Assembly (NCBI GenBank): GCA_044348705.1
Contig: JBIKSH010000005.1
Coordinates: 25,552-89,551 of the forward strand
Direction of reading: 5' to 3'
Length of the DNA: 64,000 nucleotides
Origin: Rhodoluna sp.
GTDB lineage: Bacteria > Actinomycetota > Actinomycetes > Actinomycetales > Microbacteriaceae
Shown: positions 1 to 37,561 of the stretch, piece after piece
How the letters are laid out: each line of letters starts with the position of its first letter
Numbering within the stretch: position 1 is the stretch's first letter
The notes under the pieces: model-generated
Seen by the model: the letters and a program-made list of their open reading frames with translations, nothing else
Databases searched by the model: none
What the model was told of the DNA's origin: nothing
Made by a program: the position numbers and the translations under genes

Positions 1-3000
1 ACATAGACCCTGTGAAGGTGAAACTGACCTCTGCAGCCGATGTGGTCGCGCCCCAGGGCTGGACGGTTACATTCTCAACTGACGGAACAACTTTCTCTGC
101 CACCCCGAGCAGCTGGGCGGCTGTCGTCAAGGTGAAAGCAACCGGTCCAGTCGACTCGGCAGGAGCGACCGCAGGTGGCCGACAACTGGTTTCAACTACC
201 GCATCCGCTTCTGGCACTGTCGCCACCACGAAGGGTGCAATCCGAAGCGGCGGAGACGGCTGGGACCTTGACTTCGACAGCCGCGGCTACGTCTACAACG
301 TCTACCACCGCAACCTAGTAAATGGCGCACTCGACTGTCGAAAAGTTAGCGACGGTTCTTTCTGCAGCCCAAACTGGCCATTCAGACTAAACAACCATGG
401 CTTTAATACGAACTTTGCACCTACCCAGTTTTTTGACGAAGTGAACCAACACATCTGGATTCCGACGGCCGACCGCCTAACCGGAACCGGATTCCTCTGT
501 GTTGACGTCTCGGTCGTCGAGACGCCGGGTCTCTGCGGAGGCTCAAAAGAGACCGCATGGAAGATGGTCAAAGCTCGAGCGAACGCAAACGAACTCAGCG
601 TTTACGACATCATTGCTGCAAACGGCAAAATATACGCCTGGGATGTTCTGAGCCCCGCTTTGCTCTGCTATGACTACCTAGCAAACAACGGTCTAGGCGC
701 TTCGTGCACCGGAGTGCCGACGTTCCCGAAGCTGGTTGCGGGAAGCGTTAACGGTGTGAACAACATCCCTGCCGGCCACACCAACTTGAAACTTGCCTTT
801 GGCAATCTATACGGTCAACTCAACGGTGTGATGGTTTGTTTCAACCCAACCACCTACGCGAAGTGTGCTGGCTGGGCTGACTATGACTTCAATATTCCAT
901 CGACCACCGGTGTCTCGGCTATGTATCTTCAGCCAAACAGCGCCGGCGCAATTGCCGGTGTTTGTGTTACGAATGACGCGAAGTGCTTCGCGGCAGATGG
1001 TACCCGTTTTGCGGCAAACACCACCATCCAGGCTGCTCTAACCAACTGGAACCTTGCCAAATGGAAGGGCGCAGTCGAGGCTATCGGCAGCAGATTGCTA
1101 TTCGTAAGCATCTGGGACAAGCCTTCATACCTCTTCTGCTACGACTTTGCACTCAATGGCCCTTGCGCAAACTGGACACCTTCATCTGCCTTTGGCGTTG
1201 CGGGCGTAGGTCAAATGCTCATGCAGCCACAAGGAGATAACTCATGGCGTGTGTACACGATCAAGAGTGACCCACGCGCAAGCGACTGCCTCTGGACAAA
1301 CGGTGACGCTCCGATTGCAACAATCGGGCAAGTAACCCTTTCAACCGCAACCTTCGGATGCAACATCCAAGTGGCGAACCCAACCTATGGGCAAAGTTCG
1401 TTTCAAACGCGACTCGGATGTTCGGCTGATGCCAACCTCGCGTACAAGCGTTTCACGATCGGCGGCCTTACCAAAGGCGTTGACTACTCGAGCGCGACCC
1501 TAACCATTACCAAGGCTTCTGGTGAAGTTCTTGTATCTGGCGGTACCAAGTGGGAGAACGTGGCCTTTGATAATGCCGGCTCCGTGAACGTGGCGTCCAT
1601 TTTGATGTCTGATCTGGGTACCGGTGCATCGTTTAAGGTGAACTACGCCAACCGCACCTCCACTGCTGCAACGACAGCGAAGATGACCTTAGAAACCGAC
1701 GCAGCCCAACTGTGTACTACAGTGACGGCAAACACCATTTGCCCAACCACTACCCAAGTGGGCACCCCCGTTGGTCAGTCGACCTTGTTCACAGCAACCG
1801 GTGCACAGATTGTTTCAGGTGTTCGCACCAACTACAGCTCGACTTCTGAGACTCTAGCCATTTCGGCTCCAAGCGCCGCCGCTTGCGGTTTTGCCATGAC
1901 TGGTCAGGTCGCTGAAGGTGAATTTGCTAAGTCATATCCGACAACCATTAAACCTATTTCTGGGGTCACTGCAACCTTGACCGACTCGGCAGGAAACGTG
2001 CTCAAAGACGCTGAGGGTCAAGACATCACTGCGGTCACTGATGCCAGTGGAAATTACACCTTTGGCTACCTAAAGGCAGGCACATACAAGGTGCGCTTCG
2101 CTGACTTCCCGCTGGTCAACGGAGTGGGCGCTGGCGATGTGGCCATGGTCTACATTTCACCGTTCAAGTACCAGGGCGGCAGCTATGTAATGACTGCACA
2201 AAACCCGATGAACTTCACCACCATTCAGTCGCCTTTGACCTCACTGGCGGTTACGGGTTCGGCCGGCGGTGGCGACATGGTTGTCAAGGCCACCTACACG
2301 ATGCGTGCGGTGGCAAATGCCGACACAGTCTCGATCAAGGCAGGCGCGGCTTCGACGATCGATGTGCTCGCTAACGATTCACCGACAACTGACGATAGCT
2401 TCACAACCACCAGCCTCAAGCTCTGTGCGGTCAACACAACTAGCTCTTGCACCCTTTCAACCGTCACCGTTTCGGGCGAAGGTACCTATACGGTTTCGTC
2501 CGGAAAGATTGTCTTTACCCCGGCTGTAGGGTTCACTGGCGCAGCAAAGCCAATCACTTATCAAGTGTCTGACAGCTACTCAAACACCCCTCAGACCGTT
2601 ACTGCATTGCTGTCGGTGACTGCCGTTCCGGCTCCGACCACCGCGGCAGACACCACCTCGGGTAACACGCTTGCTCCAATCACAGTGGATGTCACAGCCA
2701 ACGACTCACCTGCAACGGGCACCACGCTCGACAAGGCTTCGGTGAAACTCTGTGCGGTTGGAACCACCACTGGGTGTGCTCAAACTTCGGTTTACGTAAC
2801 TGGCAAGGGAACCTATGCGGTCAGCAACACCGGAGTGATCACATTCACTCCAGATGCTGGTTTTGTCGGCGCTGTCGCACCGCTCACCTACTCGATCAAT
2901 GACGCGGTTGGCAACACCTCTACAAACACCGTTGGCGTCACCGTGAACCCAACGCCGCCTCAGGTCACGACAGCTACGTTTGGCCCAGCTGCGCTCGGCG

Positions 3001-6000
3001 TAGCAGCCGAGCCGTTCACTCAGGCGAGTACTGCGGGCTCAGCGAGCATCCCAGCGGTTAGCGCTTGGAGCTTGGTTGCCGGTCAAGTTCCTCCTGGCAT
3101 GGCCTTTGACGTCAACACTGGAGCCATTACGGGCACCCCAACTACGGTCGGAAACTATACGTTCACAGTTCAGGTGACAGATGCAAATGGGCTCACCGCG
3201 ACAAAGGTTGAAACCATCGTGGTTGCCGTTCCACCGACGATTACCACCACTCCCCTGACCTACAAGGTTTATGCCGGTGCACTTTCGAACATCAGCAGCA
3301 CAGCCGATAAGGGAACAGTTGACCTAAAGCCAACAGCGGCTTGGAGCGCGACCGGACTACCTGCTGGGTTGTCAATCAACCCGAACACCGGTGCCATCAC
3401 AGGCACTCCGACTGCAACCGGGTCATTCACCGTTACGCAGAAGGTTGTCGACCTGAACGGTCTTGTCGATACTCAAGATTTGACCATCAACGTAGTCGCG
3501 AAGCCGACCATCGATACAGTGCTACCCCTCGCTTCAATCGTTGCTGGAAAGACAATCACGCCGATTGAGCAGTCCAAAACTGCAGGAACCGCTTTGATTC
3601 CAGCGACCGGCGCTTGGAGTATCGAGTCTGGGGCTCTTCCCTTCGGCTTGACACTCAATGCCGACACCGGAGCTATCTCGGGAACCACCGCTCTTACCGG
3701 CACATTCACGTTTACTCTCAAGTTGACCGACGCAGCGGGAGAAGTTGCAACCAAGGTTGAAACCATAACCGTGAACTCTGGGCCAACCATCACGACCACG
3801 CCGCTTACTCGCAAGGTTTACACAGGCACTGCGGCAACCGTGGCTAACACGGTTACCATCGGAACCGGCGCAATTCTGTCAACCGGTGGCTGGAGTGCAA
3901 CTGGATTGCCGGCTGGCTTGAGCCTGAACGCAAACACTGGTGTTATCTCGGGCACACCGACTGTCGCCGGCAGCTACAACGTTGTTGAACGTGTAGTCGA
4001 TGTGAACGGCTTGGCCGACGAGGAAACAATCGTGATCAAGGTGGTCACGAAGCCTACGATCACCACTGTGACGCCTCTAACCCCTGTGGTTTCAGGAGTT
4101 ACCATCACGCCAATCGCGCAAACGAAAACCAACGGAAGCGCGGCGGTTGCAGCAACGGGAGCTTGGTCTCTTGAGTCCGGTTCGCTACCAGCTGGCCTTG
4201 CTCTGAACCCAAACACCGGTGAAATCACTGGTAAGCCAACTGCCACCGGAACCTTCACCTTCACCGTGAAGTTGGTCGATGTTGATGGCGAAATCGCGAC
4301 AAAAGAAGAAACCCTCGTGGTGAATTCTGGTCCTACCATTACGACGACGCCGCTGGCTCGAACCCTGAACAATGGCGTCGCTGCGACTATCGCAAACTCG
4401 GTCACAATTGGTACCAGCGCAGTCGCCAATAATGGATGGACCGCAACCGGATTGCCGGCGGGCTTGTCTCTGAACCCGAGCACCGGAGCGATTACAGGTA
4501 CACCCACCACAAACGGAACCTTTACAGTTGCGCTGAAGGTAACCGACCTGAACGGTTTGTTCGATGAAGAGACTCTAACCATCACCATCGAAGCCCCACC
4601 GGTGGTCACCACCACCCCGGTCTCATATAAGTTCGGTGTAAACAACCCACTTAATTTGATTTTGGATGACTTCTTTGCCACTGGAACCAAGTTCGCGGCC
4701 TCTAGAGAGATCGTCAACACAGCAAACAAGGGCACTGCCAACATCGGCACCACAGGTGCGTGGAGTGCAATCGGTCTTCCACCTGGTCTAACCATCAACC
4801 CCGATACAGGAAAGATTGGCGGCTCAGCGACCACTGTCGGTGTTTACACGCCAACCATCACCGTCACTGACCTAGCTGGCCTCAGAGGCTCTAAGGTGCT
4901 CACAATCGAGATTGTGCAAGGCCCTAAAAACACGACTCCTAAGGTGTACAACTACGAAGTGGACATTCCGAAAAAGCTTGGAACCACACCTGTAACGATT
5001 ACTCAAACCTGGACTCTAGGCTCTGCCCAATTGAACTCGAATGGGCGACCAGTGCCTCATCTAGTTCAGGGCGAGAAACCCGCCGTCGTGACATCCGTGA
5101 GCATCGTAAATGGTGAAATTCAGGTTCTTCCTTCACTGGCCATGTCACTGGGTAAGGGTGTCGGAGCATATGAGCTGAAGACCGTCATAGTCGACGCAAA
5201 CGGCGCCTTCGATATTGCAACGTTCACCATCAACATCACCAATGGCGCGACCAATGTGACGACATTGATACTTCCAGAAACGATTGTCGATGGAATGTTG
5301 ATGACAAATGACCTATTCGCGCTATCTGGAACGAGCAGTAAGAAGCTGGCCCTGAGCTACACGACTAGCACTCCTAAGGTCTGTGTAATCGACACGGCTA
5401 CCAAAAAGCTCAAACTGCTAAATGAAGGCACGTGTACCGTCACCGCTGCCAGTGGCACCGGCGCTCTGCTCTCTAAAGACACCAAGAGCTTCAAGGTCAC
5501 CAAGCTGCCACAAACCACGACCATCATCGAGCCTGGCTCGGTGATTCCGGGTGGAATTGAAAAGGCACCTTTGGCAACCGATGATCCACTCGGATTCCAG
5601 CTTTACGCGTCGGTGACCTCGGGTCTGCCGCCGGTTTACGTCTCGCTAGATCCAAACGTGTGTTCAGTGGATGCTGGCGGCGTGGTTGTCTGGGACGCGG
5701 ACTTGACTGCAGTGCCTAAGGTGGCGTCTGACTTCAAGTGCCGCATCCAAGTGTCACACCCGGGCAACGTGGGCTATAAGGCGGCGGCGCCGAAGGTAAT
5801 CACGCTTACCGCGACGCACGTCGAACCGCTTCCGCCTGACGGTGGAGTGACCAAAGAGCCAGAGCAGCTTGCTGCACTGCCTGCTAGCGGCGGAACCACC
5901 GCTGAAAAGGGCGGCAACAAGTTCGTTGTAAAGGTCGATAAGGGCAAGAAGACCGTGACCGTTCAGCCGATCTCAAAGGGTCGCTGGATTGGACCGATCT

Positions 6001-6491
6001 ACGCCGACATCACCATCACATACACGCCTAAGGGTGCAACTGTTTCAAAGACTCAGGTCTGTAAGCGAAACTACTTTGGAATCGCGGTTATCGACCCGAA
6101 GACAAAGAAGATGGTCACACCTGAACTTGGCGGTAACCCGTTGGTGATTCCTGAAAAGACTAAGTACTCAACGCAGGTAACCGCCCTAATCAAGAAGTAC
6201 CAAGCTATGAAGGGCAAGTTCAGCACTACCAAGACGGTCAAGGGCAAAAAGGTTAAGTACCCTGGCTACCTTGACTACAAGTACTTCAACGGCCAAGCCA
6301 CCTGTGTGCTCGACTCTAGCGCTTACGCAGCTTGGAAGTCCGGAGTTCAGATCACAGCCAAGGCTACGGTTACGCGTGACAGGCGTTGGCCAACAACCTA
6401 CACGCGCTACAAGTCATACGACTGGAAGAAGAAGAGCAACAACGGCATCATCTATCCAACAGTTGTCGACTGGGTAATCAAGATCGGCTAA
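1..6491 (+). CDS. Giant secreted repeat / adhesin-like surface protein, 5'-partial (at least 2159 aa in window)
   Basis: The frame is open from the window edge (first full codon at nt 3, no in-frame stop before the GTG at 12) to TAA 6489-6491. Segments readable in translation: a Cys-paired periodic N-region; a Cna-B/SdrD-B-like segment (SGVTATLTDSAGNVLKD..GNYTFGYLKAGTYKVRF); two CshA-type-fibril-like repeats; seven putative-Ig (He_PIG / dystroglycan-cadherin-like) repeats; two Big-like segments (..TSTPKVCVID..GTCTVTA..); a Lys-rich tail. No LPXTG-type signal at the C-terminus. Confidence 0.85.
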   Translation, partial: IDPVKVKLTSAADVVAPQGWTVTFSTDGTTFSATPSSWAAVVKVKATGPVDSAGATAGGRQLVSTTASASGTVATTKGAIRSGGDGWDLDFDSRGYVYNVYHRNLVNGALDCRKVSDGSFCSPNWPFRLNNHGFNTNFAPTQFFDEVNQHIWIPTADRLTGTGFLCVDVSVVETPGLCGGSKETAWKMVKARANANELSVYDIIAANGKIYAWDVLSPALLCYDYLANNGLGASCTGVPTFPKLVAGSVNGVNNIPAGHTNLKLAFGNLYGQLNGVMVCFNPTTYAKCAGWADYDFNIPSTTGVSAMYLQPNSAGAIAGVCVTNDAKCFAADGTRFAANTTIQAALTNWNLAKWKGAVEAIGSRLLFVSIWDKPSYLFCYDFALNGPCANWTPSSAFGVAGVGQMLMQPQGDNSWRVYTIKSDPRASDCLWTNGDAPIATIGQVTLSTATFGCNIQVANPTYGQSSFQTRLGCSADANLAYKRFTIGGLTKGVDYSSATLTITKASGEVLVSGGTKWENVAFDNAGSVNVASILMSDLGTGASFKVNYANRTSTAATTAKMTLETDAAQLCTTVTANTICPTTTQVGTPVGQSTLFTATGAQIVSGVRTNYSSTSETLAISAPSAAACGFAMTGQVAEGEFAKSYPTTIKPISGVTATLTDSAGNVLKDAEGQDITAVTDASGNYTFGYLKAGTYKVRFADFPLVNGVGAGDVAMVYISPFKYQGGSYVMTAQNPMNFTTIQSPLTSLAVTGSAGGGDMVVKATYTMRAVANADTVSIKAGAASTIDVLANDSPTTDDSFTTTSLKLCAVNTTSSCTLSTVTVSGEGTYTVSSGKIVFTPAVGFTGAAKPITYQVSDSYSNTPQTVTALLSVTAVPAPTTAADTTSGNTLAPITVDVTANDSPATGTTLDKASVKLCAVGTTTGCAQTSVYVTGKGTYAVSNTGVITFTPDAGFVGAVAPLTYSINDAVGNTSTNTVGVTVNPTPPQVTTATFGPAALGVAAEPFTQASTAGSASIPAVSAWSLVAGQVPPGMAFDVNTGAITGTPTTVGNYTFTVQVTDANGLTATKVETIVVAVPPTITTTPLTYKVYAGALSNISSTADKGTVDLKPTAAWSATGLPAGLSINPNTGAITGTPTATGSFTVTQKVVDLNGLVDTQDLTINVVAKPTIDTVLPLASIVAGKTITPIEQSKTAGTALIPATGAWSIESGALPFGLTLNADTGAISGTTALTGTFTFTLKLTDAAGEVATKVETITVNSGPTITTTPLTRKVYTGTAATVANTVTIGTGAILSTGGWSATGLPAGLSLNANTGVISGTPTVAGSYNVVERVVDVNGLADEETIVIKVVTKPTITTVTPLTPVVSGVTITPIAQTKTNGSAAVAATGAWSLESGSLPAGLALNPNTGEITGKPTATGTFTFTVKLVDVDGEIATKEETLVVNSGPTITTTPLARTLNNGVAATIANSVTIGTSAVANNGWTATGLPAGLSLNPSTGAITGTPTTNGTFTVALKVTDLNGLFDEETLTITIEAPPVVTTTPVSYKFGVNNPLNLILDDFFATGTKFAASREIVNTANKGTANIGTTGAWSAIGLPPGLTINPDTGKIGGSATTVGVYTPTITVTDLAGLRGSKVLTIEIVQGPKNTTPKVYNYEVDIPKKLGTTPVTITQTWTLGSAQLNSNGRPVPHLVQGEKPAVVTSVSIVNGEIQVLPSLAMSLGKGVGAYELKTVIVDANGAFDIATFTINITNGATNVTTLILPETIVDGMLMTNDLFALSGTSSKKLALSYTTSTPKVCVIDTATKKLKLLNEGTCTVTAASGTGALLSKDTKSFKVTKLPQTTTIIEPGSVIPGGIEKAPLATDDPLGFQLYASVTSGLPPVYVSLDPNVCSVDAGGVVVWDADLTAVPKVASDFKCRIQVSHPGNVGYKAAAPKVITLTATHVEPLPPDGGVTKEPEQLAALPASGGTTAEKGGNKFVVKVDKGKKTVTVQPISKGRWIGPIYADITITYTPKGATVSKTQVCKRNYFGIAVIDPKTKKMVTPELGGNPLVIPEKTKYSTQVTALIKKYQAMKGKFSTTKTVKGKKVKYPGYLDYKYFNGQATCVLDSSAYAAWKSGVQITAKATVTRDRRWPTTYTRYKSYDWKKKSNNGIIYPTVVDWVIKIG
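2311..2950 (+). repeat. Two tandem CshA-type-fibril-like coding repeats (about 105 aa each) inside the giant ORF
   Basis: Paired segments ..SIKAGAASTIDVLANDSPTTDDSFTTTSLKLCAV..VTVSGEGTYTVSSGKIVFTPAVGFTGAAKPITYQVSD.. and ..TLAPITVDVTANDSPATGTTLDKASVKLCAV..VYVTGKGTYAVSNTGVITFTPDAGFVGAVAPLTYSIND.. share the motif pattern ANDS, KLCA, GKGTY, G-I-FTP, GF-G and Y. Confidence 0.6.
2955..4919 (+). repeat. Seven tandem putative-Ig (He_PIG-like) coding repeats, about 85-105 aa each
   Basis: Repeat starts are near 2955, 3231, 3501, 3780, 4050, 4329 and 4596. Each carries W-S/T-x-x-GLP-x-GL-x-(L/I)N-x-x-TG-x-I-(T/S)GTPT-x-x-G-x-(F/Y)T. R2/R4/R6 form one subtype and R3/R5 another. The DNA copies have diverged and are not near-identical. 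Confidence 0.75.
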
Positions 6492-6507
6492 GGCCGAGTT
6501 CAAGTGG

Positions 6508-6535
6508 ATGCGGGCTGCAGAAATGTGGCCCGCAT
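6508..6535. terminator. Hairpin between the convergent adhesin and DoxX-like genes (possible bidirectional terminator)
   Basis: ATGCGGGC (6508-6515), 12-nt loop, GCCCGCAT (6528-6535): a perfect 8-bp stem. It is followed by TCGCTGTTT on the plus strand. The T-run is weak on both strands. Confidence 0.45.
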
Positions 6536-6542
6536 TCGCTGT

Positions 6543-6956
6543 TTAACGGCTCGGGCGAAAGACTTGGCGCAACCAGGCAATCGAACCTGCGCTCCACAGC
6601 GCCCAAACGACCAGCAACGGCTGAAAGAACAGGCGGATTAGTCGTGCCTCATCGGTGTTGAGACCAAATGCATCGATGCCTTGAACATACTGATTGATGT
6701 TGCCGGCAAAGATTGCCACGAAGAACGTGGCAACCACGACACCTACTTGAGGCAGATACTTGGTCGCCGAAACGAGCGCTAGACCGAGCAGAATCTCTAC
6801 TGCACCAGAGGCCAAAACAACGAAGTCAACGTCGAGCGGCAGCCACACCGGAACCTGTGCGCGAAAATCCGCTCGCCCGAAGGTGAGGTGTGAAATGCCG
6901 GCGAATATGAGAAACGCTGCGAGCAGCATCCGCGCTAATGTTTTGGCGACTCTCAT
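6543..6956 (-). CDS. DoxX-like small integral membrane protein (about 137 aa, 4 predicted TM)
   Basis: The ORF is very hydrophobic, with the pattern ..LLAAFLIFAGISHL....VP.WLP....VVLASGAVEILLGLALV.. that I associate with DoxX/DoxX-like families. ATG at 6956-6954 (TTG one codon upstream at 6959) lies 6 nt after the heliorhodopsin stop codon. Confidence 0.5.
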   Translation of the reverse strand: MRVAKTLARMLLAAFLIFAGISHLTFGRADFRAQVPVWLPLDVDFVVLASGAVEILLGLALVSATKYLPQVGVVVATFFVAIFAGNINQYVQGIDAFGLNTDEARLIRLFFQPLLVVWALWSAGSIAWLRQVFRPSR

Positions 6957-6962
6957 CAAGGA

Positions 6963-7766
6963 TTAGAGAGTCAGTGCGGGAATGATTGCGCCAGAGAAAA
7001 CCTGCCAAGCGAGGATGCTCTTAGCCACGAGTGAGAGCGTGATGTAGGTGCGCTCCCCCTTGAGGTAGTTAGCCCACGAGCCGATCTGCTTGTACTGAAG
7101 AGCCTGGTTGATAGCGAAGGTGTTGAAGAAGATGAACAGTGAAACGATGATTCCGATTACGAAACCAGGAACCTCGGCTGCGCTCTCTGAGCCTGGCTGG
7201 AACGCTTGGACGGCGATTAGAACCCAAGGCACGATTCCGGTCATCGAACCGAAGATGAAAGGTAGGCCCTTGCCGTTGCCTGGGGTTTCGTACTTCTCTT
7301 GGAGAGCACCGAACATGATCATCGAGGCGTTGACCGCGAAGATTGCGACCAGAGCCGAGAAGTCTGAAATGCCCGTGAGCTGGGCGATTAGCCAAATCAT
7401 GACTGACGAGCTGATCGAATACTCAACCCATCTGAAGTAGTTGTGGTTGCGCTCGAGCCCAGCGGCATAGCGCTTGAAGAACATTGGCGACGAGATTAGA
7501 AAGTGAAAGAATGCCGAGAGGGCCAAGAACGCGACAACGCCCAGGCCTAAGTTGACTTCCCATAGAACCACTTTCTCGGTTGGAAAGCCTGCCCCCGGAG
7601 GGCCGGTCATGTAGTCGACGGTGGCATCAAAGGTGACTTGGTTTTCGATTCGCGACAAGAAGTAACCAAATGCAACGGCCTGAAGCAGGTGCATGAACCC
7701 GGCAACGATGTTGTAAGTTCTCAACCGAGTGATTTGTTCGGCTGGAGTGCGTGTGGTTTTGGCCAT
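6963..7766 (-). CDS. Heliorhodopsin (retinal-binding 7-TM protein, 267 aa)
   Basis: Near-colinear with my recollection of the prototype heliorhodopsin 48C12. Shared blocks: FMHLLQ (His26), SAFFHF(L)ISS (His88), NYFRWVEYSISSSVMIWLIAQ (Glu115 counterion position), FAVNASMIMFG, QEKY, GIVPW, VPGFVIGIIVSLFIFFN, LQYK, SNYLKGERTYITLSLVAKSILAWQ(V)FSG (Schiff-base Lys249; AAG at 7022-7020). SD-like AAGGGGA lies 6-7 nt before ATG 7766. Confidence 0.9.
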   Translation of the reverse strand: MAKTTRTPAEQITRLRTYNIVAGFMHLLQAVAFGYFLSRIENQVTFDATVDYMTGPPGAGFPTEKVVLWEVNLGLGVVAFLALSAFFHFLISSPMFFKRYAAGLERNHNYFRWVEYSISSSVMIWLIAQLTGISDFSALVAIFAVNASMIMFGALQEKYETPGNGKGLPFIFGSMTGIVPWVLIAVQAFQPGSESAAEVPGFVIGIIVSLFIFFNTFAINQALQYKQIGSWANYLKGERTYITLSLVAKSILAWQVFSGAIIPALTL

Positions 7767-7794
7767 TGTGAATCCCCTTTTGTTGGTTGGGGTC

Positions 7795-7800
7795 AGTCTA
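7795..7800 (-). promoter_or_regulatory. Candidate -10 hexamer TAGACT, 28 nt upstream of the heliorhodopsin ATG
   Basis: The minus strand reads TAA-caaaggca-TAGACT-gaccccaaccaacaaaaggggattcaca-ATG. It fits the actinobacterial TAnnnT -10 and the hexamer that recurs in this window. No convincing -35. Confidence 0.35.
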
Positions 7801-7808
7801 TGCCTTTG

Positions 7809-8306
7809 TTACTTCTGTTTTGGCGCTTGAGCTGACGATTTACCCTCGGAGCTGGGTTTTTTAGTGGCGTAGGCGAACAAGGCCAAACCTGCAACCAGCG
7901 CACCCGCGCCTACGCCGTAGGCAACGACGTCGGCTGCGCGGTTAGAGTCGACGAATACACCAACGAAGACCACTGCGATGATTGCCACGACAACGCCGAT
8001 GAGCTTTGACTTCAAATCATCGAGGTCGTTGATCTGAAGCCAGGTTGGTACCTCGATCCGGGTGTCCACAAAGAGTTCATAAAGACCAAAGCCAATGACC
8101 AACAGAACGGTGCCGAGCAAGATGGCGTCGACTGCGGTCAGAACATCCACGATTGTGACTTTGAGGTAGCTGCCCTTGAAGATTGAGTCAAAAACGACCA
8201 TCAGAATCTCAATGGAACCTTGGACCATCAGCAGAAGGGCCCCGATCATCGAAGCAATGGCTGGCACGACGACCGCATAGCGGGTCATTCCGAGGATTTT
8301 TCTCAT
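7809..8306 (-). CDS. YqhA / UPF0114-family-like membrane protein (165 aa)
   Basis: Multi-TM ORF. Its architecture and length resemble E. coli YqhA-type proteins (N-terminal TM, ..ILLGTVLLVIGFGLYELFV.., then ..KSKLIGVVVAIIAVVF..). It has a Lys/Ser-rich C-terminal tail. Same strand as the heliorhodopsin gene, 42 nt upstream of it. Confidence 0.55.
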   Translation of the reverse strand: MRKILGMTRYAVVVPAIASMIGALLLMVQGSIEILMVVFDSIFKGSYLKVTIVDVLTAVDAILLGTVLLVIGFGLYELFVDTRIEVPTWLQINDLDDLKSKLIGVVVAIIAVVFVGVFVDSNRAADVVAYGVGAGALVAGLALFAYATKKPSSEGKSSAQAPKQK

Positions 8307-8312
8307 GTCTGC

Positions 8313-8318
8313 ACTCTA
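8313..8318 (-). promoter_or_regulatory. Candidate -10 TAGAGT placed for a leaderless yqhA-like transcript
   Basis: The minus strand reads cGG-TAGAGT-gcagac-ATG. There are exactly 6 nt between the hexamer and the start codon and no SD is possible. This matches the geometry known for leaderless mRNAs in actinobacteria. Confidence 0.4.
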
Positions 8319-8387
8319 CCGAGCAAACTGCCTTAGTGAAAGAAACCCAGTCGGCGTTTGCAAGTGATTTTGGCTCTAGAAAGCAAG

Positions 8388-8460
8388 CGCCCTCGGTAGG
8401 AATCGAACCTACGACCAAGAGATTAGAAGGCTCTTGCTCTATCCACTGAGCTACGAGGGC
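8388..8460 (-). tRNA. tRNA-Arg (anticodon TCT)
   Basis: The reverse complement folds as GCCCTCG-TA-GCTC-AGTGGATA-GAGC-A-AGAGC-CTTCTAA-TCTCT-TGGTC-GTAGG-TTCGATT-CCTAC-CGAGGGC-G. 73 nt, one 31:39 C:T mismatch, CCA not encoded. Confidence 0.9.
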
Positions 8461-8568
8461 ATTGCGCTAAATAAACCTGGGCAGGAACAGTTTAATGCTC
8501 AGAGTTGTAGAAAACCGTGCCGATGAGAGATGCATTAGCTCTTTGGCGAGATTTGCTAGATTTTGTTT

Positions 8569-9117
8569 GTGCAAATCGAAACAGAACGCTTGATTCTGAG
8601 ACCCATGAAGCAGAGCGACGCGGCTGACTTGTTTGAGTATCAATCGAATGCGGAAATCGTCAGGTACATACCCTGGCCTGAAGGCACCGAAGAAACTGTT
8701 CAGAAACATATCGACCGGACTCTAGCCGAAAGCGTTACCGCCCCAAAAGAAGAAGGCGAGTACTTGGTTCTTGTCTGGCAGCTGAAATCTACCGGGAAAG
8801 TAATAGGCCAATCCAACCTGAACATCGAATCAATAGAACATAGCTGCGCCGAAATCGGCTGGGTGACACATCAAGATTTTCATCGGCAAGGCTATGCTCG
8901 CGAAGCATCCGTGGCGGTTCTTACGTATGCATTTGAGACGTTAGGAATTCACCGAGTCAAGGCGGTCATGGATACTCGTGCTCCAGGCTCTGCAGCCGTG
9001 GCAGCGAGTTTGGGCATGCGCAGAGAAGCCGAGTTCAAAGAGGTCGAATTCTTCAAGGGTGAGTGGTGTGACATGTGGAACTACGCGATTCTCAAATCAG
9101 AGTTTGAACGTCGGTAA
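8569..9117 (+). CDS. GNAT-family N-acetyltransferase (RimJ/RimL-like)
   Basis: N-terminus ..QIETERLILRPMKQSDAADLFEY.. and ..GWVTHQDFHRQGYAREA.. are typical of RimJ/RimL-type GNATs. The track starts at TTG 8563. I prefer GTG 8569 because TAGATT (8557-8562) sits exactly 6 nt upstream, which suggests a leaderless start. Confidence 0.8.
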   Translation: MQIETERLILRPMKQSDAADLFEYQSNAEIVRYIPWPEGTEETVQKHIDRTLAESVTAPKEEGEYLVLVWQLKSTGKVIGQSNLNIESIEHSCAEIGWVTHQDFHRQGYAREASVAVLTYAFETLGIHRVKAVMDTRAPGSAAVAASLGMRREAEFKEVEFFKGEWCDMWNYAILKSEFERR

Positions 9118-9141: not shown

Positions 9142-10122
9142 TTACTTGTTCAGGTAGTCCCAGTGCTTGGCGATCGCATCGATGAACGCCTGCGGCTGCT
9201 CTTCTTGAGGCAAGTGAGCCGAGTTGGCGATAGTTTCGAGCTTGGAACCCTTTATCTTGCTGTTGAGCACTGGCGCATCTGAAGCGGCAACCACCGTGTC
9301 GTATTCACCAGTGATCACCAGAGTTGGCAAGTCGAGGTCGGCCAGGTTGTCACGCAACGGGTTCTCGTTCGGGGCAATCCTGAAGTTATAGAAAGCCTGC
9401 TCCCAGCCCTTGATCTTTAGCGGAAGCCGGTATCCGTCATAAACCGCCTGGGTCAGCTGGCTCTTGTCGTAGTAGCTCTCTTCGAGCAGTGCGTTGCCAG
9501 AGCTAGCAATTTCAGCCACCAAAATCGGCCCAAGTCGCTGCATCTGAGGCAAGTGGAAGAACCATTCGAATGGCCCAGAACCGCCACCAGAAGTCAAGAT
9601 GGCTGCGTCAAGAAGAACAAGCGACAGATTCGAGGATGCACGAGTGCGGGCATACTCACCAGCCAACGCTCCCCCGGCCGAGTGCCCCACGAGCACCACC
9701 TTGCGGTCGCTTGCGTACTTTGCAATCAAATCGTCGAGCAACAAAAAGTTGCCTTCGAGGCCGTAAGGGTTCTCGCCTTGCCACTCAGTTGGGCGCTCGG
9801 TGAGACCAAATGCAGGGCGGTCATAAGAAATAACGTCGCCGAAAGCGGCCAAAGGCTGCGAAACTTCACGCCAGCTGTATGTGCTCGCGCCAAAACCGTG
9901 CATCAGCACGATCAACGGTGGGGTGCAGCCGCAATCACCCGTGTATTCGGTTCGCGCGATGCGAACATCCAAGCCATTCAATTCAACAAACTCAGCGCCC
10001 GGCTCGGCCTGCGCCGGGGTCAATGAGCCAGATGACTCAAAGGGAATCAAAAAAGGAACGATTAGAAACGAGAGAACGCCTGCCAATAGCGCGCGCCACA
10101 TTATTTTGCGAAACGTCTTCAT
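9142..10122 (-). CDS. Membrane-anchored alpha/beta-fold hydrolase (326 aa)
   Basis: N-terminal hydrophobic anchor (ALLAGVLSFLIVPFLIPF), HGFGAS oxyanion region, GHSAGG nucleophile elbow, C-terminal ..NSAHLPQEE.. His motif. Confidence 0.8.
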   Translation of the reverse strand: MKTFRKIMWRALLAGVLSFLIVPFLIPFESSGSLTPAQAEPGAEFVELNGLDVRIARTEYTGDCGCTPPLIVLMHGFGASTYSWREVSQPLAAFGDVISYDRPAFGLTERPTEWQGENPYGLEGNFLLLDDLIAKYASDRKVVLVGHSAGGALAGEYARTRASSNLSLVLLDAAILTSGGGSGPFEWFFHLPQMQRLGPILVAEIASSGNALLEESYYDKSQLTQAVYDGYRLPLKIKGWEQAFYNFRIAPNENPLRDNLADLDLPTLVITGEYDTVVAASDAPVLNSKIKGSKLETIANSAHLPQEEQPQAFIDAIAKHWDYLNK

Positions 10123-17738: not shown

Positions 17739-17887
17739 CCGAAGCCCGTTTGCCTGAAGGCGACATAAGCCTGTTCCAATGTTCTCTAATAGGTATAAAC
17801 TCGTAAGTCGGCAACAAACAGCCACTTAGGCTGTGGTTTTGGGTGTCTAAGCCCACGCAATTCAAGCCTGCTAGGAGTTTTAGAGCG

Positions 17888-18934
17888 ATGGATATTGAGG
17901 ACTTCTCAACAGAAATGCGCGGTTACAAAAAAGACGAGGTTGACCGCGTCTTGGGTGAACTGCGCGCTGAGCTTGAGCACGTTCGCGAATACAACTTCAA
18001 CGCCGCCTCAGAACTCGACACCCTTCGCGCCGAAGTTGCTGCGCTAAAGAAGAAGAAAGATTCAGCTCCGGGCTACGCCGAACTCGGTGCCCAGTTTGAG
18101 CAAACACTTCGACTAGCAGAAGAACAAGCCAAGAAAATGGCCACGGATGCTGCGCAAGATGCCATCCGCGTTCGAGAAACAGCCAAGGCCGAGACCGAAC
18201 AACTCGCCCGCAAGGCTCAGCAAAAAGCTGACTCAATCATTGCCGAAGCTGAAGCAAAACTTGCCGAGGCAAAGATTCAAGCCGAAAGCCTCAGTTCTGA
18301 AATTCTTCAAAATGCCAAGTCTAAAGAGTCAGAGGCCGGCGAGAAGATCGCCACAGCCGCTCGTGAGGCCTCAGCTATCAAGTCTGAAAGCGAGCGTTAC
18401 GCCGCCGAACTTCGCGCACAGGTTCACCGTGAGACCGAAGAAGCCCGTGCCCTCGCTACCGAACTTGCTCAGCGCACCGCCCAGGCACGTGTAGAGCTTG
18501 AAGCGGAGCTAAAAACCCGTCGCGACGAGACTGAGCAAGAAGCGCTGACTCTTTACCAGAGGGCCGTAGCCCAGGCCCAAGAGACCACCGACGAAGCACA
18601 GCGCAACTTTGCTGAAGCTTCAGCTCGAGCCACCGAGATTTTGAGCGAAGCCGACAGGCTCAACCGCGAAGCAAACCAAAACGCTGCAGCGATGTCTGAT
18701 GAGGCAACTCGAACCGCAACCAACACGATCAACCAGGCCCGCCGACGCGCAGAGGCTCTAACCAAAAAGGCTGAGTCGATCGCAAATCACGCCATCAAGG
18801 AATCTGAAGATCGCCTAGTGCGCATGCGTGCCGAGCGTATCGAAATCGATGAGTTCTTGAACCAGCTGCGCAACCTAATGTCTACCGAGGCCATGGTCGC
18901 CGACGCAGAAAACGCTGCTCAGACCGACGACTAG
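17888..18934 (+). CDS. DivIVA-domain / long coiled-coil protein (about 348 aa)
   Basis: N-terminal DivIVA-like motif F..EMRGYKKDEVDRVL, followed by about 300 aa of Ala/Glu/Arg-rich heptad-like sequence. I chose ATG 17888 (AGGAG 11 nt upstream) because it matches the N-terminal length of the paralog at 32414. The track start is GTG 17843. Confidence 0.75.
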   Translation: MDIEDFSTEMRGYKKDEVDRVLGELRAELEHVREYNFNAASELDTLRAEVAALKKKKDSAPGYAELGAQFEQTLRLAEEQAKKMATDAAQDAIRVRETAKAETEQLARKAQQKADSIIAEAEAKLAEAKIQAESLSSEILQNAKSKESEAGEKIATAAREASAIKSESERYAAELRAQVHRETEEARALATELAQRTAQARVELEAELKTRRDETEQEALTLYQRAVAQAQETTDEAQRNFAEASARATEILSEADRLNREANQNAAAMSDEATRTATNTINQARRRAEALTKKAESIANHAIKESEDRLVRMRAERIEIDEFLNQLRNLMSTEAMVADAENAAQTDD

Positions 18935-32413: not shown

Positions 32414-33508
32414 TTGGCAGCTGAAGAAGCCGAATTTGCAACCGTGATGCGCGGCTACGACCGCGACGCGGTTGACGATGCGCTGCGTGACCTGCGACGC
32501 CAGTTGCTTCAGCTTTCTAACCAAAATGCTCAGCTTGCCACCGAACTTCGAACGGCTAATGAATCGTCGTCGCGTTTTGAACGCGAACTCAAAGAAACCG
32601 TTGCGCCAACCTACGCAACCGTCGGCGCCAGAGCTGCACTCATTTTGAGCACTGCCGAAGACCAGGCGAACCGAATTGTTGCCGAGGCAGAGACCGAACG
32701 CCGAAGGCTGCTCGAAGAGGTCGACAGCGAACTCGAAACGCTTCGTGCCGAAGCCCGCGAGTATTACGACTCGGTCGTTGCAGAGGCAAGCAGACGTGCT
32801 GAACGCCTCTCGGCCGCAGCCAAGGCAGACTACGATGCTCTGGTCGAACAGGCTAGAACCGAGTCGACGCGCCTGGTTGAAAACGCCATGCAAGAAGCCG
32901 GTGCCACTCGTGGAGCGATTGCCACAGAGGTGGCCAGGATGCGCGCCTCCGCGAAACGAGAAATCGAGGCAGCTCGAACCGCGTTTGACCGTGAACAGAG
33001 CGAGAAAAAGCTAATCGCTTCTAGAGCGCTCAACAAAAATTTGAACACCGAAAGCGCCTGGAGCTTGCTTTCAGAGCAGGCACGAGTTGACCTCGAGCTT
33101 GAAGTGACCGCGCGTCGAGCAGAGGCTGAGGCCGAGTACCTTCGCAAGCACCAAGACGCGGTTGCCGCAACTCAGCGTTACCTCGACGAAGCCAACGCGA
33201 TGCTCGCGCAGGCGAGAACCCGAGCCAACGCGGCGAAACTTGAATCAGAGACCCTTGAGACTGCAGCCAGGGCTCACACCAAGCGCACCACCAACGAGGC
33301 TCGTGAGAAGGCCGAGGCCATTCTTCTGGCCGCTGAAGCCGAAGCGCGCAGCATCCTCTCTGAAGCACAGTCGCACTCTGCAAAAGAGCTTCACAAGCTC
33401 AAGGGCAAGATTGCGAAGCTAAACGTTGAGCGTGACGCAGTGGCGCAATACCTTCACAACCTGCGCGCCGTAGTTGAAAACGCAGAGCAGAATTTAAGCA
33501 GAGACTAA
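32414..33508 (+). CDS. DivIVA-domain / long coiled-coil protein (364 aa), paralog-like to 17888..18934
   Basis: TTG start with AGGAG 8 nt upstream. N-terminus F..VMRGYDRDAVDDAL, then about 300 aa of Ala/Glu/Arg-rich coiled-coil-like sequence. Confidence 0.75.
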   Translation: MAAEEAEFATVMRGYDRDAVDDALRDLRRQLLQLSNQNAQLATELRTANESSSRFERELKETVAPTYATVGARAALILSTAEDQANRIVAEAETERRRLLEEVDSELETLRAEAREYYDSVVAEASRRAERLSAAAKADYDALVEQARTESTRLVENAMQEAGATRGAIATEVARMRASAKREIEAARTAFDREQSEKKLIASRALNKNLNTESAWSLLSEQARVDLELEVTARRAEAEAEYLRKHQDAVAATQRYLDEANAMLAQARTRANAAKLESETLETAARAHTKRTTNEAREKAEAILLAAEAEARSILSEAQSHSAKELHKLKGKIAKLNVERDAVAQYLHNLRAVVENAEQNLSRD

Positions 33509-36345: not shown

Positions 36346-37086
36346 CTATTTAGTGGGTAAAGAAGTGGTCGGGCACTTAGACAGAACCGAGCTCATCGCA
36401 GACTTCTCTGCAGACGTCACCCAAACGCCGTATTTCAGCTTCACAGCGACCTGACGGGCCACGTAAGCGCACCGATAAGACTTGTTAGGAGGCAACCAGG
36501 TTGCCGTGTCGCTGTCGCCCTTTGAGCCATTGGTTGGGCCATCAACTGCTAGTAGGTTCAACGGGTCGTTGTAGAAGTTGTAGCGCTTCGCGTAACTCCA
36601 CTTTTGAGCACCCTTTTGCCAGGCATCGCTAACCGCTACAACATGGTCAATCTGAACCTTGATCGAAGTTGAACGTCCGCGAAGAAAATTGATGGTTTTG
36701 CCGGTGTAAGGGTCGTTCAGAATGCCCGATTCGACAATGCAGGTCTCGCCCGCTCGCCAAGAAATTCTTTTCAAATCGCGAGCTAAAACGTAGTTTCTAG
36801 CATCGCAAGAGCCGACCTTGCCCCATCCGTCAGAGAACAGCTCTCGGTCGTAGCCGGTTTTTGGTGCGCGGCCCTTGACGACAAGCTTGGCAACGGCCTT
36901 AGCCGCATTTGTGGCGGTGACAACTACGGGTGCTTGTTCAACCTGGATTGTCGCGACGGCGTTAGTGGCGCCCGTTGCGGTGAAGCCCACCAACAACGAA
37001 AGTACAACTAGGGCTCTAGAGGACTTTTTCAATTTGGATGAGCTCGACGACTTTATCGATGAATAGATCGACCTGGCTTTCAACAT
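36346..37086 (-). CDS. Secreted HNH/DUF1524-type nuclease-like protein (about 246 aa)
   Basis: Signal-like N-terminus (MLKARSIYSS..SSRALVVLSLLVGFTATGATNAVA). C-terminal ..IDHVVAVSDAW....N..NLLAVDGPTNGSKGD....WLPPN.. matches the GmrSD-C/DUF1524 His-Me finger pattern. ATG 37086 has AAGGGG 6 nt upstream. The track start at 37164 is probably too long. Confidence 0.65.
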   Translation of the reverse strand: MLKARSIYSSIKSSSSSKLKKSSRALVVLSLLVGFTATGATNAVATIQVEQAPVVVTATNAAKAVAKLVVKGRAPKTGYDRELFSDGWGKVGSCDARNYVLARDLKRISWRAGETCIVESGILNDPYTGKTINFLRGRSTSIKVQIDHVVAVSDAWQKGAQKWSYAKRYNFYNDPLNLLAVDGPTNGSKGDSDTATWLPPNKSYRCAYVARQVAVKLKYGVWVTSAEKSAMSSVLSKCPTTSLPTK

Positions 37087-37561
37087 AACCGCCCCTTTTT
37101 GGTGTGAATAACACTTTTCTAACGGCATCAACCGACATTTTGTCGCCACCATCGAGGTGAGCATTTACCTGGCCGATGAAAACGTCTACCTCTTTGCGGC
37201 TGTATCCGCGAAAAATGTAACCAGTTGTTGAAAAACGTTTTCGCGCTGGGCGTTCAACGCGTCCGACCAAGAGAACCTTGAGGTCGTTCAACCTGTCGAG
37301 CAGGTCATCGAGTTGCCCCGCGTCGAGAACCCGCTGCAGCCTGCGCGCGGCGAAGGTGTCTTCGAGTTTGTCCAGCGCAGCATCCACCGCGCTAACCGAA
37401 TAGCCACCCTTTTCTAGCCTGAACTCTTTTTCGCGAATGTCGGGAATCGCGTCGATCTGGTTTGAGTTGAAAACCGCTCGAGACTCGGCGATGAATTCGT
37501 CAACGTCTGATGGCTTGTAACCGAGCTTGTTCGGCTTAGCGTGTGGAAAAGGAAACGACAT
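37016..37561 (-). CDS. DivIVA-domain protein (181 aa) with several GY-x4-VD-x-F/A-like motifs
   Basis: LGYKPSDVDEFI, GGYSVSAVDAAL, RGYSRKEVDVFI, RGGYVESQVDLFI. It lies immediately downstream of cdsA. Confidence 0.75.
   Translation of the reverse strand: MSFPFPHAKPNKLGYKPSDVDEFIAESRAVFNSNQIDAIPDIREKEFRLEKGGYSVSAVDAALDKLEDTFAARRLQRVLDAGQLDDLLDRLNDLKVLLVGRVERPARKRFSTTGYIFRGYSRKEVDVFIGQVNAHLDGGDKMSVDAVRKVLFTPKRGGYVESQVDLFIDKVVELIQIEKVL

Follow-up and report, generated by a model that had tools for sequence, protein, structure and literature searches.

A recurrent pair of heliorhodopsin and DoxX-like membrane protein genes in Rhodoluna sp. and other actinobacteria, a candidate functional module

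Described partners of heliorhodopsins

The function of heliorhodopsins (HeRs) is little understood, and the few roles assigned so far came from neighbouring genes. Here, a HeR gene (helR) and the gene of a small DoxX-like membrane protein located directly downstream of it are described from a stretch of 64,000 nt of Rhodoluna sp. (contig JBIKSH010000005.1 of assembly GCA_044348705.1, positions 25,552 to 89,551), which is referred to as the window. The two genes form a real and recurrent pair, found in two orders of actinobacteria with no fewer than three architectures; it is facultative on both sides and is a well-founded candidate for a functional module. The original prediction for this stretch had placed both genes, together with a YqhA-like gene, in a cluster of three genes that all encode membrane proteins.

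The closest described systems are HeRs that regulate operon-encoded partners, namely AbHeR with glutamine synthetase (PMC9529153), TfHeR with a photolyase (PMC9769723) and OcHeR with the ABC transporter OmrDE (PMC11109279). In these operons the HeR gene is likewise tightly linked to that of its partner on the same strand, pairing recurs across taxa, as it does here, and HeR is thought to modulate the product of the neighbouring gene by direct binding. The candidate partner considered here differs in being a predicted four-helix integral membrane protein of 137 aa. The pair is a new, or at least never followed up, case of a heliorhodopsin plus operon partner and does not represent a new type of system. 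As a next candidate for a HeR partner, the DoxX-like protein is specific and comparatively well supported.

Three further systems resemble the pair in part. The gene of sensory rhodopsin II also lies beside the gene of a membrane-embedded partner, HtrII, with which it is co-transcribed, and the signal is received within the bilayer; HtrII, however, has two transmembrane helices plus HAMP and methyl-accepting domains, whereas the DoxX-like protein, almost wholly membrane-embedded at 137 aa, has four predicted helices and no HAMP, methyl-accepting or other cytoplasmic signalling domain. The DoxX-SseA-SodA complex of Mycobacterium tuberculosis (Nambi et al. 2015, in the summary given by PMC7907618) also contains a small membrane protein of the DoxX clan in an actinobacterium, and a role in thiol and oxidative-stress homeostasis similar to the one considered here has been proposed for it in that summary. 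The window protein differs in matching Pfam DoxX only below the threshold, in that its partner would be a photoreceptor and in the lack of sseA and sodA among the window genes scanned. NACHO/TMEM35A, an assembly factor of the endoplasmic reticulum for pentameric ligand-gated ion channels, is a small four-helix protein that binds a multi-pass transmembrane region (PMC11565801). It differs in being eukaryotic and in having only 15% identity to the DoxX-like protein (Foldseek E-value 0.18). We take NACHO to be a member of the DoxX family.

The extent to which the pair has been described before depends on a family assignment. Bulzu et al. 2021 (mSphere, PMC8612252) screened same-strand HeR neighbours with an intergenic distance of <10 bp, and the legend of Fig. 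3 in that paper gives 'COG4270' as a HeR neighbour that is fused to glutaredoxin in many genomes; COG4270 proteins are predicted membrane proteins of ~120 aa (PMC3637587). The window pair, with both genes on one strand and a gap of 6 nt (3-7 nt in eight related loci from two clades), lies within the limits of that screen. The name of COG4270 is presumably 'uncharacterized membrane protein', which is also the JGI label of the DoxX-like family. COG4270 of Bulzu et al. may be the DoxX-like family, in which case the tandem pair is perhaps already catalogued there, and because of this the novelty is lower than the original prediction had assumed. In contrast to COG4270, fusions to glutaredoxin were found neither among the long members (≥170 aa; 10 inspected by Pfam and ~20 by eye) of the best 150 of 969 cluster representatives of the family nor in 80 metagenome DoxX-like loci. 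The divergent pair of the acI lineage, described below, falls outside the same-strand limit, and the DoxX-like gene is not mentioned in the text of PMC8612252; that text highlights a glucose/sorbosone dehydrogenase after HeR in acI, and the same gene was observed here. Cho et al. 2024 distinguish ten groups of HeR neighbours, none of which is the DoxX-like family, and no paper naming both 'heliorhodopsin' and 'DoxX' was found in the literature searched.

The helR/doxX-like pair and its recurrence

The helR gene of the window (Table 1) encodes a bona fide HeR. Its product matched Pfam PF18761 with an E-value of 5.7e-93 and 311.2 bits (cutoff 26.7) and the NCBIfam equivalog model NF038020 with 331.6 bits (cutoff 100), and a phmmer comparison with the 48C12 structure 6su3 yielded an E-value of 1.1e-86, with an identity of about two-thirds as counted from the alignment. 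The counterion glutamate E115 (FRWVEYS, transmembrane helix 3) and the Schiff-base lysine K249 (SLVAKS, transmembrane helix 7) are conserved and align with those of 6su3; the equivalent residues of 48C12 are, as we assume, E107 and K241, respectively.

By direct reading of the sequence, the TAA stop codon of helR occupies positions 6965-6963, the spacer TCCTTG positions 6962-6957, and the ATG of the doxX-like gene begins at 6956. The resulting gap of 6 nt is without a Shine-Dalgarno-like purine run, in agreement with the original prediction. An in-frame TTG is present at 6959; as homologues begin at the ATG, the start is placed at 6956. Upstream, 42 nt separate the TAA of the YqhA-like (UPF0114) gene (7811-7809), which is on the same strand, from the ATG of helR. 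Within this interval a -10-like TAGACT (7800-7795) precedes the helR ATG by 28 nt, with a good Shine-Dalgarno sequence (AAGGGGA) between the two. The TAGAGT preceding the UPF0114 gene (8318-8313) lies 6 nt before its ATG, in leaderless geometry. The spacing and both -10 candidates had been noted in the original prediction and were found as noted. A scan of positions 6300-8700 with a sigma-70 consensus gave zero promoters, such a scan being uninformative for Actinobacteria, and the Rfam scan of the window returned two tRNAs only, with no riboswitch or leader RNA near the operon.

Downstream of the doxX-like gene, the hairpin that had been predicted there was located at about 6507-6537. The minus-strand RNA of positions 6485-6560 folds with -24.6 kcal/mol (z = -2.38), and 6 of 200 shuffled sequences fold equally well. 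The hairpin is likely a terminator, a role that can only be inferred because the minus-strand RNA has no U-tract.

Recurrence was determined first from the side of HeR, with 80 loci from bacterial genomes (one per species), all of them from Microbacteriaceae and with HeRs 68-98% identical to the window copy. Two well-separated HeR clades have the doxX-like gene directly downstream of helR in the same orientation. The first is the window clade (L001-L003 plus the metagenome loci L081-L084); the second (L037, L041, L044 and L046) has HeRs ~73% and DoxX-like proteins 60-67% identical to the window copies. The junction measures 3-7 nt in all eight tandem loci from these two clades and is conserved without a Shine-Dalgarno sequence, with DoxX-like identities of 60-85%. 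In Pontimonas (L057 and L058) the doxX-like gene lies directly upstream of helR in divergent orientation, and in L004 the two genes are 3.8 kb apart. The comparison with related genomes that the original prediction had called for was hence positive for the DoxX-like neighbour (tandem with a short junction in two clades, divergent in Pontimonas and acI) and negative, beyond L001 and L081, for the YqhA-like one.

The YqhA-like protein is a clear UPF0114 member (PF03350, E-value 5e-25, 88.5 bits, cutoff 23.1), and its gene adjoins helR in the same orientation in just two loci, L001 and L081, both from species-level relatives of the window. It is on the opposite strand in L004, is replaced by another gene in L002 and L003, and is not next to helR in 77 of the 78 other species loci. 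The helR leader of ~40 nt, CATAGACTGACCCCAACCAACAAA(A)GGGGATTCACA-ATG, is nearly identical in L002 and L003 (CATAGACTGACCCCAACCAACAAAGGGGATTCACA-ATG), where the upstream gene is a different one on the other strand; this assigns the -10-like element and the leader to helR and not to the UPF0114 gene. A module of three genes all encoding membrane proteins, as originally proposed, would fit the shared strand and the spacing of 42 nt in the window, L001 and L081, and UPF0114 copies located at some distance from doxX-like genes in L133 and L137 hint at a loose association. The three-gene module is nevertheless very improbable and was rejected, given that UPF0114 is missing beside helR in L002 and L003 despite the nearly identical leader, is inverted in L004, is not beside helR in other loci, and has a leaderless-type -10 element of its own. 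The unit consists of two genes, helR and the doxX-like gene, with the YqhA-like gene as a bystander.

The genes upstream of the pair vary by lineage: UPF0114, fumarase, or an unrelated, unannotated gene of 208-252 aa on the opposite strand (cluster c91); those downstream of it vary likewise. As the flanks change and the helR leader is kept regardless of the upstream gene, the pair moves as a unit.

The second sample was drawn from the side of the DoxX-like family. Metagenome contigs were scanned with a diverse family alignment whose first sequence is from a rare lineage, which gave 80 loci with G+C contents of 32-74% and a total of 462 kb; the scan pattern demanded the motif PGN, so that the window clade, which has AGN, was excluded. 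A HeR gene was present in 11 of these 80 loci. Ten of the 11 have a G+C content of 0.40-0.41 and are from Candidatus Nanopelagicus-type acI Actinobacteria (freshwater contigs), an assignment taken from the name of cluster member P0350. The acI pair is divergent, with 46-70 nt between the start codons in L102, L115, L133, L147 and L117 (for L117 by hidden Markov model coordinates). All ten acI DoxX-like loci whose upstream flank extends to 800 nt or more have HeR, and sampling acI from the HeR side gave a doxX-like gene in five of five loci with enough upstream flank. In the family tree the HeR-linked DoxX-like members fall in one large sub-branch. One further contig, L097, has a HeR gene 2.9 kb from the doxX-like gene and, as a single contig, is weak evidence.

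An adjacency without functional meaning, owing to inherited synteny or to hitch-hiking of two small membrane-protein genes, would be in keeping with the extremely fluid context of HeR, the absence of the pair from most Microbacteriaceae loci, the difference between L179 and L190-192 described below, and the possibility that all acI loci stem from a single ancestral event. It is quite improbable in view of the at least three architectures, the spread over three or four lineages or more that differ in their flanking genes, the retention of the pair in every informative acI locus despite turnover of the flanks, and the occurrence of 11 HeR genes in 462 kb around doxX-like genes, which is far above the expectation for a single-copy gene; by a rough estimate, the probability of this by chance is below ~1% per independent lineage.

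Table 1. Features of the helR/doxX-like locus in the window.
Feature	Position	Strand	Evidence
Gene of UPF0114/YqhA-like membrane protein, 165 aa	8306-7809	minus	Pfam PF03350
Heliorhodopsin gene (HeR, helR), 267 aa	7766-6963	minus	Pfam PF18761, NCBIfam NF038020
Gene of small membrane protein of the DoxX/MauE clan, 137 aa; recurrent HeR neighbour	6956-6543	minus	Sub-threshold Pfam matches, fold
HeR stop codon and 6-nt spacer (TAA TCCTTG / ATG), probable translational-coupling junction	6965-6957	minus	Read from sequence
HeR promoter/leader	7808-7767	minus	-10-like TAGACT 7800-7795; Shine-Dalgarno AAGGGGA ~7779-7773
G+C-rich hairpin in the 51-nt convergent spacer after the doxX-like gene, likely bidirectional terminator	6507-6537		RNA fold
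tRNA-Arg(TCT), boundary of the locus, 80 nt upstream of UPF0114	8387-8460	minus	ARAGORN; Rfam tRNA, 68.3 bits

The DoxX-like protein and its possible roles

Scores of the window protein with Pfam were all below the thresholds: 17.9 bits for DoxX (PF07681; E-value 0.0048, cutoff 23.6), 17.7 bits for MauE (E-value 0.0047, cutoff 27) and 14.1 bits for DoxX_2 (cutoff 26.3). When 40 diverse members of the family were scanned singly, 31 matched MauE, 17 DoxX, 9 DoxX_2 and 6 DoxX_3, with essentially no other match; the best E-values to the clan ranged from 1e-5 to 4e-6, and member P0144 reached 32 bits with DoxX. Members of the Rhodococcus cluster are labelled 'DoxX family (membrane) protein' by NCBI and UniRef. 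Judged by its sequence, the protein belongs to an unmodelled subfamily of the DoxX/MauE clan and stands outside Pfam DoxX by the curated threshold; the label 'DoxX-like' given in the original prediction thus holds at the level of the clan, whereas the gathering score of DoxX itself is not reached.

A profile search of 1.84 billion cluster representatives found 969 relatives at E ≤ 1e-3, of which 521 were at E ≤ 1e-10. The signature of the family is F-x-AQVP-x-W-x-P, then VFPGN(I/V)-x-Q, then DAFGLDTD-x-x-R-x-x-RLFFQP. Across the alignment of 40 sequences, residues H23, P36, R105 and R108 of the window protein do not vary, and E54, N86, Q89 and Q112 hardly do. The window clade departs from the signature at residues 79-85 (VAIFAGN; 6700-6720 in the window), where a proline-to-alanine exchange at residue 84 gives AGN in place of the nearly invariant PGN.

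An AlphaFold2 model built from the 40-sequence alignment reached a pLDDT of 97.4 and a pTM of 0.89; a run with a shallow alignment of close homologues (pLDDT 55) was discarded. The model has long helices at residues 2-24, 43-63, 65-92 and 102-122 plus short ones, in agreement with the pattern of hydropathy and charge, and the protein is accordingly modelled as a small four-transmembrane-helix bundle. From the charge distribution and the positive-inside rule, a topology is predicted in which the N and C termini lie in the cytoplasm and the two most conserved loops on the outside; these loops hold the motifs F-x-AQVP-x-W-x-P and (P/A)GN-I-x-Q-Y...DAFGL-x-TD-x-x-R-x-x-RLFFQP. Searches of PDB sequences with the family profiles gave chance-level matches only, and no solved structure was found by sequence.

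By fold, the top PDB match of the model was NACHO/TMEM35A with a GABA-A receptor subunit (9h9e_B), with ~134 aligned columns, a Foldseek probability of 0.99 and TM scores of 0.54-0.56, but with the E-value and identity given above. NACHO shields transmembrane interfaces of a multi-pass client (PMC11565801), and a comparable role, as an intramembrane assembly or stabilising factor (chaperone or structural subunit) of HeR and not as an effector, would gain from translational coupling, which would bring both proteins to one membrane site. Such a role is improbable: apart from the E-value of 0.18 and the identity of 15%, most HeR loci are without the gene, family members are frequent at loci near which no HeR was found, and HeRs are known to fold and bind retinal in E. 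coli without a DoxX-like protein.

The invariant histidine and the nearly invariant glutamate of the family are inside transmembrane helices, which would also suit a protein that handles the chromophore, for example with the retinal-forming activity proposed for Actinobacteria lacking blh. In the passage of PMC12817590 that cites Nakajima 2020, Nanopelagicus is without blh yet has rhodopsins, and an equivalent of blh is proposed for Aurantimicrobium. The Aurantimicrobium HeR loci L035, L038, L042 and L050, however, have no doxX-like gene nearby, the family occurs without a nearby rhodopsin gene, including on contigs with type IX secretion system (T9SS) proteins, and also in Rhodococcus genomes, and the DoxX-like protein shows no similarity to Blh or carotenoid oxygenases, all of which makes a chromophore role the least probable of the explanations considered. 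No genes of carotenoid or retinal biosynthesis were seen among the window open reading frames scanned.

Two fusions were observed within the family. P0129 (L093, 5001-6346) is a natural fusion of a DoxX-like domain with glutathione peroxidase (GSHPx), followed by a gene for a MarR-family regulator, on a contig with T9SS (Por_Secre_tail) proteins, and P0163 is a DoxX-like domain fused to a lipocalin domain. The other N-terminally extended members that were inspected proved to be artefacts of gene calling or frameshifts, leaving these two as the real fusions.

The reading preferred here is that helR and the doxX-like gene constitute an operon, whose products would be a HeR and a membrane protein that acts as its partner or effector in connection with light and oxidative stress; with its function inferred, it is given a rough probability of 0.45. 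A bicistronic transcript would start from the -10-like promoter and Shine-Dalgarno leader just upstream of helR and end at the hairpin in the convergent spacer. The doxX-like gene would most likely be translated by termination-reinitiation coupling, because it has no ribosome-binding site and starts 6 nt past the helR stop. The original prediction had likewise suggested co-transcription and possibly coupled translation, and the retention of the 3-7 nt junction in two clades makes the genes look like one unit. By analogy with the described operons, HeR may be a light-dependent regulator or complex partner of the DoxX-like membrane protein, which in turn might supply a membrane thiol/quinone-type redox function or an envelope oxidative-stress function. 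DoxX proteins have been linked to mycothiol homeostasis and to the response to thiol and HOCl stress (summarised in PMC7907618). Within the DoxX-like family, indirect hints of a redox role are the fusion with glutathione peroxidase next to a MarR gene and, in acI, the presence within 3 kb of genes for a second DoxX/DUF417-like protein and for a DCC1-like thiol-disulfide oxidoreductase. A photo-oxidative-stress mechanism is plausible as a hypothesis. A narrower version of the operon reading, in which the DoxX-fold protein is a dedicated intramembrane partner of HeR and light-induced changes are passed on within the bilayer, switching thiol/quinone redox chemistry or envelope protection, is considered rather unlikely.

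Several observations weigh against the operon reading. Regarding occurrence, the pair is adjacent in only ~8 of the 71 Microbacteriaceae species loci with adequate flanks, ~88% being without a doxX-like gene; L179 has the pair and L190-192, 93% identical in nucleotide sequence, are without the doxX-like gene; and in acI loci other than those with the short divergent spacer, insertions in the intergenic space are tolerated, either of a VapBC-like cassette or of an ABC-transporter operon. The fetched flanks of ~45 high-GC soil-type DoxX-like loci contained no HeR, and neither did those of DoxX-like genes on NrfA-bearing contigs or on T9SS-type contigs (probably Bacteroidota); family members also occur in Rhodococcus genomes. 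Regarding function, the score for Pfam DoxX is below the threshold, and no rhodanese (SseA) or superoxide dismutase domain was found among the window open reading frames scanned or the annotated neighbours of related loci. HeRs such as 48C12 are functional alone in E. coli, where they fold and bind retinal, and therefore HeR has no strict need of the DoxX-like protein. L179 was also considered as an additional independent lineage and was down-weighted because of its 93%-identical relatives without the doxX-like gene.

The main rival is co-regulation without contact, in which a shared or overlapping promoter would place both genes under a light or photo-oxidative-stress response with each protein acting alone. 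The tandem and divergent layouts and the insertions of 0.7-4 kb fit a shared regulon better than obligatory stoichiometric co-translation, redox genes are enriched near HeR generally (KatG upstream in some Aquiluna loci; the same tendency was reported by Bulzu et al., PMC8612252), and the DoxX-like family works without HeR in many taxa. Co-regulation alone is nonetheless thought somewhat unlikely, since the conserved junction of 3-7 nt without a Shine-Dalgarno sequence across clades suggests selection for coupled synthesis, and since the operon neighbours of HeR that have been studied experimentally are direct binding partners (PMC9529153, PMC11109279).

Should the narrower version with a dedicated intramembrane partner be correct, the pair would be a photoreceptor-effector module conserved in two groups that rank among the most abundant bacteria of freshwater, acI/Nanopelagicales and Luna-type Microbacteriaceae. 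The DoxX-like protein would then be the first small membrane-embedded partner of any HeR, and an uncharacterised DoxX subfamily would gain a physiological role. The acI lineage is the dominant one in freshwater bacterioplankton and is sensitive to oxidants; there, a light-gated module for membrane redox chemistry or envelope protection would be relevant to the way in which cells withstand sunlight. As both proteins are small and membrane-embedded, the pair could serve as a tractable two-protein system for 'inverted' rhodopsin signalling. Regardless of function, the three-gene idea is corrected and the genomic context of HeR is seen to be highly fluid.

Flanking genes in the window and in related loci

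The fluid context is apparent over L001-L080 (HeR at ~5001-5800 in each). In a Rhodoluna-type group, genes of the alpha-amylase family are located 5-11 nt upstream of HeR, with a convergent MMPL gene; some Aquiluna loci have KatG directly upstream of HeR; most Pontimonas-type loci have DUF1684 and DUF3145 genes 2-6 nt downstream of it; and another group is flanked by PGPGW, DUF4870 and cytochrome-b5/DUF2231 genes. An alpha/beta-hydrolase gene is located in the window at 9142-10122 on the minus strand, ~1.4 kb upstream of HeR, and the same gene is immediately downstream of HeR and convergent in the sister clade L004/L005 (~5805-6790). Cho et al. 2024 include 'alpha/beta hydrolase' in their ten groups of frequent HeR neighbours.

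The acI HeR loci have the appearance of a small redox-flavoured island (L147, 3989-8949; L133, 2530-6304; L115, 3859-9724). The glucose/sorbosone dehydrogenase gene lies downstream of HeR, with the doxX-like gene divergent; in L147 and L133 the latter is followed by a DUF305 gene and, beyond that and within ~3 kb, by genes of a DCC1-like thiol-disulfide oxidoreductase and a second DoxX/DUF417-like membrane protein. A VapBC-like toxin-antitoxin cassette sits exactly between the divergent helR and doxX-like genes in L163 (1163-1722), and also in L180-L183 and L187 (genes of a 115-aa protein and a PIN-domain protein), and L138 has a four-gene ABC transporter operon at the same site. UPF0114 copies 70-77% identical to the window copy were found 2.3-3.5 kb from the doxX-like gene in L133 (acI; 6756-7256, minus strand) and L137 (a contig with 54% G+C; 6483-6779, minus strand), which may reflect a loose regional association or chance.

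An abundant lineage with cytochrome c nitrite reductase genes (L085-L092; ~5001-5795 in L085) has no HeR within the fetched flanks of 2.4-5 kb. In these loci the gene of a small DUF1304 membrane protein follows 3-9 nt after the doxX-like gene.

Within the window, a repeat-rich open reading frame of 2159 aa (12-6491, plus strand) converges on the doxX-like gene. Its homologue in L081 contains CshA_repeat, Big_9 and He_PIG Ig-like domains, which points to a giant surface or adhesin-type protein. A protein with a restriction endonuclease domain of the GmrSD_C type is encoded at 36346-37164 on the minus strand, and two separate DivIVA-domain proteins at 17843-18934 and 32414-33508, both on the plus strand. 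The rest of the window is housekeeping in character and includes gatCAB, ligA, glgE/glgB, rpsB-tsf-pyrH-frr, xerC, dprA, ffh, ftsY, smc, mutM and recG.

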